Sequence record: PQ014731.1 | Length of the DNA stretch: 64,000 nt | From: Escherichia phage VB-EcoM-WM | Reading direction: 5' to 3' (one strand) | Part shown: piece after piece, positions 52,511 through 53,150 of the stretch | Layout: the number at the start of each line of letters is the position of its first letter | How positions within the stretch are numbered: position 1 is the first letter of the stretch | Position numbers and translations under genes: made by a program | The notes under the pieces: model-generated | What the model saw: only the letters and a program-made list of their open reading frames with translations | Told to the model about the DNA's origin: nothing | The model's database searches: none

Positions 52511-52861
52511 ATGAAAGAGGAGGATAAGCTGCCATACCTTAAAGTCCCATTTGGAATACTGTCTATGTCAAAAGTTTTGAATGATACAACTGGAGAGGTT
52601 GTTGTTCTTGACTTGTATGACAAGATCGTATACTGCTACCTGCACAACTGGTATAAGCTTGGAGGAAGTTCACGCTTCACACCCAGCACAAGGAAAATTG
52701 CCGCAGATGTTGGGATAAAGAAAACAAAAGCAGCAGCGTGCGTTAAAACTTTAGAATGTGCAGGAGTGGTTGAAATATCCACACAAGGGAGAGGTAAAAG
52801 ATGCACATTTTCCAAAGTTTTGCCACCAGAAGAAGTTATTCGGATGTCAACAACTGGTTAG
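52511..52861 (+). CDS. putative winged-helix DNA-binding protein (116 aa)
   Basis: STRKIAADVGIKKTKAAACVKTLECAGVV helix-turn-helix-like; CAGGAG RBS; adjacent to iterons. Confidence 0.5.
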   Translation: MKEEDKLPYLKVPFGILSMSKVLNDTTGEVVVLDLYDKIVYCYLHNWYKLGGSSRFTPSTRKIAADVGIKKTKAAACVKTLECAGVVEISTQGRGKRCTFSKVLPPEEVIRMSTTG

Positions 52862-52934
52862 ACCAGTAAAAACTTAAATATCTGTACTATAAGGATTTGT
52901 ATGTTTTATGTTCACTTTAGGGCTGAGATTATTA

Positions 52935-53018
52935 ACTGTCCGTGAGACGGACACTACTGTCCGCCACGCGGACACATCTGCCCGTAATACGGACACTAAC
53001 TGTCCGCAATACGGACAC
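52935..53018. repeat. four tandem 21-bp iterons, each with a GTCCG-N5-CGGAC palindrome
   Basis: actGTCCGtgagaCGGACact / actGTCCGccacgCGGACaca / tctGCCCGtaataCGGACact / aactGTCCGcaataCGGACac. Confidence 0.7.
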
Positions 53019-53039
53019 ATAAAGAATATAACTAAAATA

Positions 53040-53150
53040 ACTAAATAATAAAAAATAAAAGATCTAGTACTTATGGTACTAAAGTACATATACTTAACTT
53101 ATGTAGAATATACTAGATCCTAAGTACCATGTTTTAAATTTATTACTTAC
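53040..53150. repeat. AT-rich segment with inverted repeats
   Basis: GATCTAGTA ... TACTAGATC inverted repeat; GTAC-containing palindromes. Confidence 0.4.

Follow-up and report, generated by a model that had tools for sequence, protein, structure and literature searches.

A candidate lambda-like iteron origin with a single-domain, RepA_N-like initiator in rV5-like phages

The window analysed here is a 64,000-nucleotide stretch of Escherichia phage VB-EcoM-WM (PQ014731.1), which was identified as part of a Vequintavirus (rV5-like) genome. Positions 52511-53150 carry a plus-strand gene for a protein of 116 amino acids (aa; 52511-52861), an array of four palindromic repeats (iterons; 52933-53018) and an AT-rich segment (53019-53150), and a GC-rich hairpin (53164-53207) closes that segment on the right. 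Comparison with related sequences makes it probable that this locus is the replication origin of the rV5-like phages, a lambda-like iteron origin served by a single-domain, RepA_N-like initiator encoded by the adjacent gene. At 90-99% identity, the 1.2 kb around the array has matches in 118 phage records, every one of which belongs to an rV5-like myovirus (genus Vequintavirus) and contains the region.

The array (no strand assigned) was defined by repeat finding and by Tandem Repeats Finder, which reports 52935-53018 with a period of 21, 4.0 copies and a score of 89. The copies occupy 52933-52954, 52954-52975, 52975-52996 and 52997-53018, are spaced 21, 21 and 22 bp apart (two helical turns), and conform to the unit consensus cTG(T/C)CCG-N5-CGGACAc. 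Their palindromic cores are TGTCCGTGAGACGGACA (52937), TGTCCGCCACGCGGACA (52958), TGCCCGTAATACGGACA (52979) and TGTCCGCAATACGGACA (53001). The first-pass annotation had described a phased array of four head-to-tail 21-bp units, each containing a GTCCG-N5-CGGAC palindrome. The four units and their phasing were confirmed, with one correction: the left arm of unit 3 is GCCCG, making it imperfect where the other three are perfect palindromes. With up to one mismatch, GTCCG-N5-CGGAC occurs five times in the window compared to an expectation of 0.44; four of the five are the array, and none of 100 shuffles reached five matches. In the complete genome PV435126 (135,753 bp) the motif at the same tolerance is confined to the four array units, as is a 17-bp version allowed up to two mismatches, and a motif found only at the array in a complete genome does not fit a dispersed operator. 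The array is intergenic, lying 71 bp past the stop codon of the 116-aa gene, and four GenBank records among those listed annotate it as a 'repeat_region'.

Comparison with related genomes, for repeat number among other things, had been proposed at first pass as a check. The array was present in all nine relatives first compared, with four units in eight of them and six in the other. In the six-unit array, that of Escherichia coli O157 typing phage 14 (KP869112.1), units 2 and 3 are duplicated (42 bp), which shows that copy number can change. In the 13 relatives inspected the arms were identical to those of the window, variation being confined to the N5 spacers or linkers. The closest complete relative has one arm change, GTCCG to GCCCG in unit 2. 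Among eight aligned relatives the variable columns amounted to 7% in the array, 6.8% in the AT-rich segment and 31% in the 71 bp that separate stop codon and array, and here too all array variants fell in the N5 spacers or linkers. Metagenomic relatives whose protein is 85-88% identical have the same arms.

The AT-rich segment and an inverted repeat within it had also been pointed out in the earlier annotation, and both were verified. The segment (53019-53150, no strand), which is the proposed DNA-unwinding element, is 80% A+T. Its first 42 bp are 93% A+T and 74% purine, with 30 A on the top strand. The 100 bp from 53019 form the least stable 100-bp duplex of both the window and a 135.7-kb relative genome, with a nearest-neighbour free energy of -101.7 kcal/mol compared to a genome mean of -133.7 (standard deviation 5.7), ie about 5.6 standard deviations below the mean stability, and the segment is also the least stable of both sequences at the 60- and 150-bp scales. 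On the minus strand, at 53052-53064, is the 13-mer GATCTTTTATTTT. It contains GATC and is an exact match to the E. coli oriC consensus GATCTnTTnTTTT, the single such match within the 64-kb window; the link to oriC rests on that consensus and was noticed after the fact. The arms of the 9-bp inverted repeat (no strand), GATCTAGTA at 53061-53069 and TACTAGATC at 53111-53119, are complementary at nine of nine positions across a 41-bp AT-rich interval, and the repeat is unchanged in eight relatives. The GC-rich hairpin at 53164-53207 (no strand) is preceded by ATAGTGTCG. Its folding energy as single-stranded DNA is -15.1 kcal/mol (z = -2.83), and among relatives its stem is invariant and its loop variable.

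The upstream gene (52511-52861, plus strand) had been read as coding for a small helix-turn-helix-like protein, and the 116-aa open reading frame (ORF), the weak winged-helix matches and the structure model all agree with this. We propose it as the iteron-binding initiator. PHROG 12838, 'replication initiation protein', matches it with E = 1.3e-75, and three PHROG families of larger initiators match it more weakly, through their N-terminal parts. In Pfam it matched DUF6945 (PF22182; E = 2.3e-5, 24.9 bits compared to a cut-off of 28) and HTH_36 (PF13730; E = 2.3e-4, 21.4 bits compared to a cut-off of 25). Each of these two families was matched by six of 13 members of the protein family at E up to 0.01, and the homologue in Erwinia phage pEa_SNUABM_55 exceeds the DUF6945 cut-off with 32.2 bits. 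The best match by sequence in the PDB is 4RO3 (E = 9.2e-6, residues 13-90). A single-sequence structure model was unusable (predicted local distance difference test, pLDDT, 39). An AlphaFold (AF2) model from a 33-sequence alignment gave a pLDDT of 71 and a predicted template-modelling score (pTM) of 0.68, and consists of one canonical winged helix (a beta-hairpin, three helices and a wing) with disordered ends. In Foldseek the top match to this model was again 4RO3 (E = 1.2e-4, template-modelling score 0.61), followed by N-terminal domains of Staphylococcus aureus plasmid RepA proteins and a Rep-DNA complex (4PQL, 4PT7, 5KBJ), with CodY, ArsR and MarR regulators scoring close behind the RepA domains.

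The structure 4RO3 is the N-terminal domain of RepA from the Vibrio cholerae satellite PLE. This RepA_N-type initiator drives replication from the PLE origin, where a non-coding region with semi-palindromic repeats is required for replication and where binding of RepA to those repeats was tested by electrophoretic mobility shift assay (PMC7145576). Semi-palindromic direct repeats, a trait of the cognate origins of RepA_N proteins, are present at the window locus as well. The fold and sequence matches are suggestive of a stand-alone counterpart of the RepA_N N-terminal domain. The kinship is suggestive rather than proven: the RepA_N family itself (PF06970) is unmatched and the profile of the wider protein family finds MarR/SlyA first. 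RefSeq uses the name 'replication initiation protein', and most GenBank records have 'putative transcriptional regulator'. In wider searches, a scan of IMG/VR returned no relatives of the 116-aa protein, a word-indexed protein search with the single query returned near-identical sequences only, and an exhaustive HMMER search gave nine hits, several of them spurious (low-complexity or immunoglobulin-repeat proteins). A phage-like metagenome contig (k141_109066, ENA) encodes at 5522-6687 a 156-aa DUF6945 protein and, immediately after it, a 228-aa protein in which a GIY-YIG nuclease domain is fused to a DUF6945-like domain. This fusion protein has 30% identity to the window protein, and a search of its contig for tandem repeats found none. 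With an initiator-like DNA-binding domain as its guide, a nuclease could be aimed at origins.

By tblastn the 116-aa protein is confined to Vequintavirus. Other genera of the Vequintavirinae have small winged-helix genes at a comparable module, and these are referred to here as types B and C, the window protein being type A. Type B was found in Erwinia phage pEa_SNUABM_55, Klebsiella KpS8, Escherichia 4MG and Cronobacter GAP31, and type C in Raoultella Ro1, Salmonella PVP-SE1, Escherichia Av-05, Cronobacter CR3 and others. Profile comparison with hhalign connects A to B with 91% probability and B to C with 85%, the direct comparison of A and C being weak. Type B queries against a complete Vequintavirus genome find only the type A gene, and there is one such gene per genome. 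In seven of ten loci (all except CR3, phiTE and ABPH49) the gene adjoins palindromic direct repeats of different sequence: two copies of AGCCTATGCTCAAATTGAGC for type B, two or three copies of CTAATTATTCCC-N4-GGGAAT in Ro1 and PVP-SE1, and two copies of TATGTCCCC-N4/5-GGGGACA in Av-05. The repeats are followed in all seven loci by AT-rich DNA with GATCT motifs and, at the equivalent place and on the same strand, a 13-mer-like element matching the consensus with one or two mismatches. In six of the seven, Av-05 being the exception, a ATAGAGTCG-like word and then a short GC hairpin come next; the hairpin differs from that of the window but holds the same place.

Ro1 and KpS8, which belong to one genus, are 90-93% identical on both flanks of the module; between the flanks, all likeness is lost over the gene, the iterons and the initial portion of the AT-rich DNA. 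The same pattern is seen between PVP-SE1 and 4MG. Since the flanks are alike and the gene and repeats are not, protein and repeats appear to behave as one exchangeable specificity module set on a conserved unwinding region. Lambdoid phages swap initiator and origin specificity together. In the phi92-like Escherichia phage Paula, the syntenic divergent intergenic region (1103-1513) contains a GC hairpin and very AT-rich DNA and lacks both tandem palindromic repeats and a linked winged-helix gene; the module of the Stephanstirmvirinae may be built differently or located elsewhere.

The global minimum of the cumulative GC skew falls at window position 51449, 1.5 kb upstream of the array, at the switch in gene orientation. 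It coincides with one of the skew changes reported by the authors of the rV5 genome, who sought the origin by skew without locating it and ascribed the skew changes to transcription (PMC3606486). Where the module is of type B or C, its position is exactly the intergenic region between the divergent genes. In the window a sigma-70-like promoter, TTGACA-18-TATTTT with a TG element, is predicted at 52447-52476 on the plus strand (10 of 12 consensus matches), and a promoter is annotated at the equivalent place in the records of rV5 and Gotham. Because it precedes the gene, early transcription would cross the gene into the array and the AT-rich DNA. KpS8 has a strong promoter, TTGACA-17-GATAAT, which faces into the gene across hairpin, AT-rich DNA and iterons, a layout which allows autoregulation. 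From these two promoters, the putative origin would be transcribed in both arrangements, as it is at ori-lambda. No sigma-70-like promoter in the window overlaps the array or reads rightward from it. A weak leftward sigma-70-like site, TGAACA-17-TATAGT, is present on the minus strand at 52914-52886 (9 of 12 matches), 19 bp to the left of the array; it would yield RNA antisense to the winged-helix gene, and its sequence is largely conserved in relatives.

Three attributes of an iteron origin are thus found together: at least three initiator-sized direct repeats in helical phase, an adjacent A+T-rich DNA-unwinding element, and a cis-linked putative initiator gene which co-varies with the iterons over three protein/iteron types. 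The following sequence of events is envisaged. Host RNA polymerase would make the 116-aa protein early in infection from the promoter at 52447-52476. Dimers of the protein would bind the four palindromic iterons, which are two helical turns apart, so that all would lie on one face of the DNA. The resulting nucleoprotein complex would bend the DNA and, assisted by negative supercoiling and perhaps by passing transcription, would cause the adjacent AT-rich DNA to open, with the 42-bp A-rich tract and 13-mer-like element as the starting point. The helicase-primase, of the T7-gp4 type, and the DNA polymerase of the phage would then load on the opened strands. We infer each of these properties, namely dimerisation, iteron binding, opening, helicase loading and origin activity, from the arrangement of the locus and its relatives. 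The first-pass annotation had suggested a phased site bound cooperatively by a dimeric protein, possibly the one encoded next to it, and the comparative data favour that suggestion: gene and repeats are linked across genera and exchanged as a cassette, and the nearest solved relative of the protein is the domain of a dimeric iteron-binding initiator. The same annotation held that an origin, a packaging site and an early/late switch could not be told apart from sequence. The three can be partly separated when related genomes are used. The least stable DNA of the genome, the conserved 13-mer-like element, a motif unique to the array, the nearby skew minimum and, in Klebsiella phage KPP-1, termini that are distant from the module together favour an origin.

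Several results weigh against an origin or against the proposed part of the protein in it. Both Pfam scores of the window protein are under the gathering cut-off, and RepA_N (PF06970) was matched neither by the window protein at E up to 1 nor by any of the 13 family members at E up to 0.01. The combined profile of all three protein types matches MarR/SlyA better than 4RO3, the type C profile matches no initiator, and winged helices are generic. The 116-aa protein consists of the DNA-binding domain only and is without the C-terminal domain of RepA_N proteins or lambda O, which leaves helicase recruitment unexplained. In 52862-53522 there is no DnaA box (TTATNCACA, up to one mismatch) and no exact integration host factor (IHF) consensus; such sites are usual in plasmid origins and are not a feature of ori-lambda. 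The 13-mer was recognised post hoc, and the window has no excess of matches to it when up to one mismatch is allowed. The skew is weak evidence, being confounded with gene orientation. The iterons of types B and C are placed between promoter and gene, which would also suit pure autoregulation, and repressor-operator pairs are swapped as cassettes too, as in the immunity regions of lambdoid phages, so that the exchange of gene and iterons cannot by itself separate an origin from an operator.

These points bear mainly on the possibility that the protein is a winged-helix transcription factor which binds the array to block or tune transcription and that the locus has no origin role. Such a factor could act on transcription that runs on out of the early operon into the downstream tRNA, lysis and structural genes or, in other genera, on its own synthesis. 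The regulator name in many GenBank records, the best profile match to MarR/SlyA, the autoregulatory promoter-iterons-gene order in KpS8, the position of the window array between the early operon and downstream genes of the same strand, and the weak leftward promoter-like site adjoining the array are all in keeping with it. We nevertheless consider it rather unlikely. The window array is downstream of its gene and cannot be the operator of that gene, yet the linkage has been kept, and no sigma-70-like promoter overlaps the array or leads rightward out of it. An operator also leaves unexplained the extreme instability and near-invariance of the adjacent DNA, the uniqueness of the site in the genome, the retention of the 13-mer-like element across genera, and the finding that no solved structure is closer to the protein than an initiator domain. 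Iteron replicons combine autoregulation with origin function, and regulation is therefore an alternative only if it is the sole function.

A pac site, at which the small subunit of the terminase, or the winged-helix protein acting as one, would bind the array to begin headful packaging, was weighed against the mapped termini of a related phage. Phased repeats are established at some terminase recognition sites (pac and cosB), the large terminase gene is on the same strand about 4.7 kb downstream of the array, and Vequintaviruses have been described as headful or circularly permuted, with no site given (PMC8407724, PMC13211470). The array coincides with a sequence end in three cases, one GenBank record and two metagenomic contigs: position 1 of MG065672.1 is the first iteron (window 52933), and the contigs stop inside the array or at its end. 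These ends were rejected as physical termini, breaks at a 4 x 21-bp repeat being typical of short-read assemblers. In KPP-1 the direct terminal repeats, of 514 bp, are mapped to 116,316-116,829 (PMC9862379). Its type B module is at about 71.5-71.8 kb, ie some 45 kb from the termini if the numbering of the paper and that of GenBank agree. In no genus is the module beside the terminase gene; several genes and the tRNA cluster intervene in the window, and other genera place the module between nucleotide-metabolism and RNA-repair genes. The protein, moreover, resembles initiators and not small terminases, and packaging from this site is extremely improbable. Some other protein-binding element, such as a partition or anchoring site, a nuclease target or decoy, or a recombination hotspot travelling with a DNA-binding gene, is highly improbable as well. 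The GIY-YIG fusion indicates that the family can direct nucleases to DNA, the array has gone from four units to six in one relative, and one rV5-like genome is on record as a circular E. coli 'plasmid'. Against this, no partition ATPase or nuclease gene was identified among the neighbours of the module, no record similar to that 'plasmid' was found among RefSeq complete E. coli genomes, and the conserved pairing of the repeats with the most unwindable DNA of the genome would have no explanation.

The origin proposed here can be compared with three known systems. In ori-lambda, four inverted repeats for O dimers are followed by a 40-bp A+T-rich, strand-asymmetric region, the site is within an early transcription unit whose transcription reaches the origin and activates it, and the initiator is encoded alongside (PMC5043065). 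The window locus has the same order of four dimer-sized inverted-repeat iterons and an asymmetric A+T tract, here of 42 bp, and its predicted early transcription and adjacent gene correspond as well. It differs in that the lambda site is inside the O gene and the window array is intergenic, and in that O's C-terminal domain recruits P-DnaB, whereas the window protein has a DNA-binding domain only and the rV5-like phage supplies its own gp4-like helicase-primase. No search found sequence similarity between lambda O and the 116-aa protein. The closest solved relatives in both sequence and fold are the RepA_N initiators, represented by PLE RepA (4RO3) and the RepA proteins of the S. aureus plasmids pSK41 and pTZ2162 (4PQL, 4PT7, 5KBJ). 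Their N-terminal domains crystallised as winged-helix dimers, and PLE RepA works with the replisome of a phage and not with that of the host. These proteins add a host-specific C-terminal domain which the window protein is without, and a poly-A tract is what their iterons usually converge on; the arms in the window are instead GC-rich with a variable 5-nt spacer. The carrier is also different, being a 136-kb virulent myovirus and not a plasmid or satellite.

With the iteron plasmids of enterobacteria (P1, F, RK2, pSC101 and R6K) the locus shares helically phased iterons beside an A+T-rich unwinding element. The unwinding element of RK2 holds oriC-like 13-mers, and the 13-mers of oriC carry adenine-methylation sites (PMC5043065); the window has an exact 13-mer consensus with a GATC in it. 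The plasmid iterons are asymmetric and bind monomers of a two-domain Rep, and DnaA boxes are usual; the window has palindromic units and one winged helix, with neither a DnaA box nor an IHF site found. The locus is described here as working like ori-lambda and the RepA_N systems and not as a member of them, as it fails the Pfam tests for RepA_N, DUF6945 and HTH_36.

Part of this was already available. The name 'replication initiation protein' is in PHROG 12838 and RefSeq, and the repeats are marked in some records. In none of the records whose annotation was examined is an origin marked, a connection drawn between repeats and gene, or an unwinding element noted. Full-text literature searches yielded no paper in which Vequintavirus is tied to iterons or an origin of these phages is described, and no paper or record was found for the unwinding element or the cassette exchange. 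The candidate is not surprising in principle and is useful but not revolutionary. The rV5-like phages are widely isolated and are used as therapy and biocontrol candidates, with their origin of replication unlocated; about 700 bp can now be named as a precise and testable candidate, along with the putative initiator. If the assignment is correct, a lambda-style iteron origin works with a single-domain initiator and a T7-like replisome, a mosaic hotspot of the Vequintavirinae is explained as an exchange of origin specificity, and an engineering handle is gained, for example for origin-based vectors, replication reporters and host-range studies. A much broader and doubtful proposition is that, in large virulent myoviruses which have their own helicase-primase, one RepA_N-like winged helix of about 105-125 aa is all that a minimal initiator needs to open the origin, with the cassettes swapped between Vequintavirinae as interchangeable specificity modules. 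Pressure from origin-targeting nucleases or satellites is a possible driver of such swapping; a comparable origin-directed nuclease is known from the ICP1-PLE system.

The surroundings of the locus were also described. On the minus strand near the array are an RNA ligase gene and two Sir2 genes. The plus strand has a kinase-like ATPase gene, a phosphoesterase gene and then the 116-aa gene, followed by a non-coding stretch of 661 bp, small genes, the tRNA cluster, the lysis genes and the large terminase gene. The genes at 49338-52463 form an RNA-repair/NAD (nicotinamide adenine dinucleotide) cluster of Sir2-family deacetylase, RNA ligase, polynucleotide-kinase-like ATPase and metallophosphoesterase. 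They recur in other Vequintavirinae with order and orientation changed, so that an inversion separates the genera here. The rV5-like phages have their own T7-gp4-like helicase-primase and an SF1B-type helicase, and a relative genome carries a gene annotated as a putative DNA N6-adenine methyltransferase.

Beyond the AT-rich segment, 53151-53460 is a 310-bp non-coding stretch of 54.8% G+C (42.5% for the window), with one 18-bp and one 3-bp indel among relatives, and may or may not belong to the origin. Small ORFs are annotated there in BASEL records. A structured RNA in these GC-rich 300 bp or so was rejected, the fold z-scores being only -1.88 and -1.18, and the stretch does not look coding, as its variable sites show no codon periodicity (18/17/17). 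An Rfam search of 52800-53600 at E up to 10 gave nothing credible.

Of the 118 records matching the array region, 18 are named 'Campylobacter phage' (MG0656xx); their region is about 96% identical to that of the E. coli phages and they appear to be mislabelled. A search of PLSDB for plasmid homologues gave as its sole match CP057073.1, a complete rV5-like genome of 137,565 bp filed as the circular, non-mobilizable 'plasmid' pRHB39-C03_2 of an E. coli from cattle faeces, and the filing may reflect carriage or contamination. The tRNA cluster occupies 55399-56122. For its member at 55868-55966, of 97-99 nt, ARAGORN gives an undetermined type with a four-base 'atcc' anticodon, and the GenBank label is tRNA-OTHER. 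A group I intron (Rfam RF00028, 92.7 bits, 58393-58617) apparently interrupts the large terminase gene at 57660-59473, with terminase pieces in the ORFs 57660-58409 and 58736-59473 on either side. In the close relative PV435126 the terminase is a single unbroken ORF of 1548 bp.

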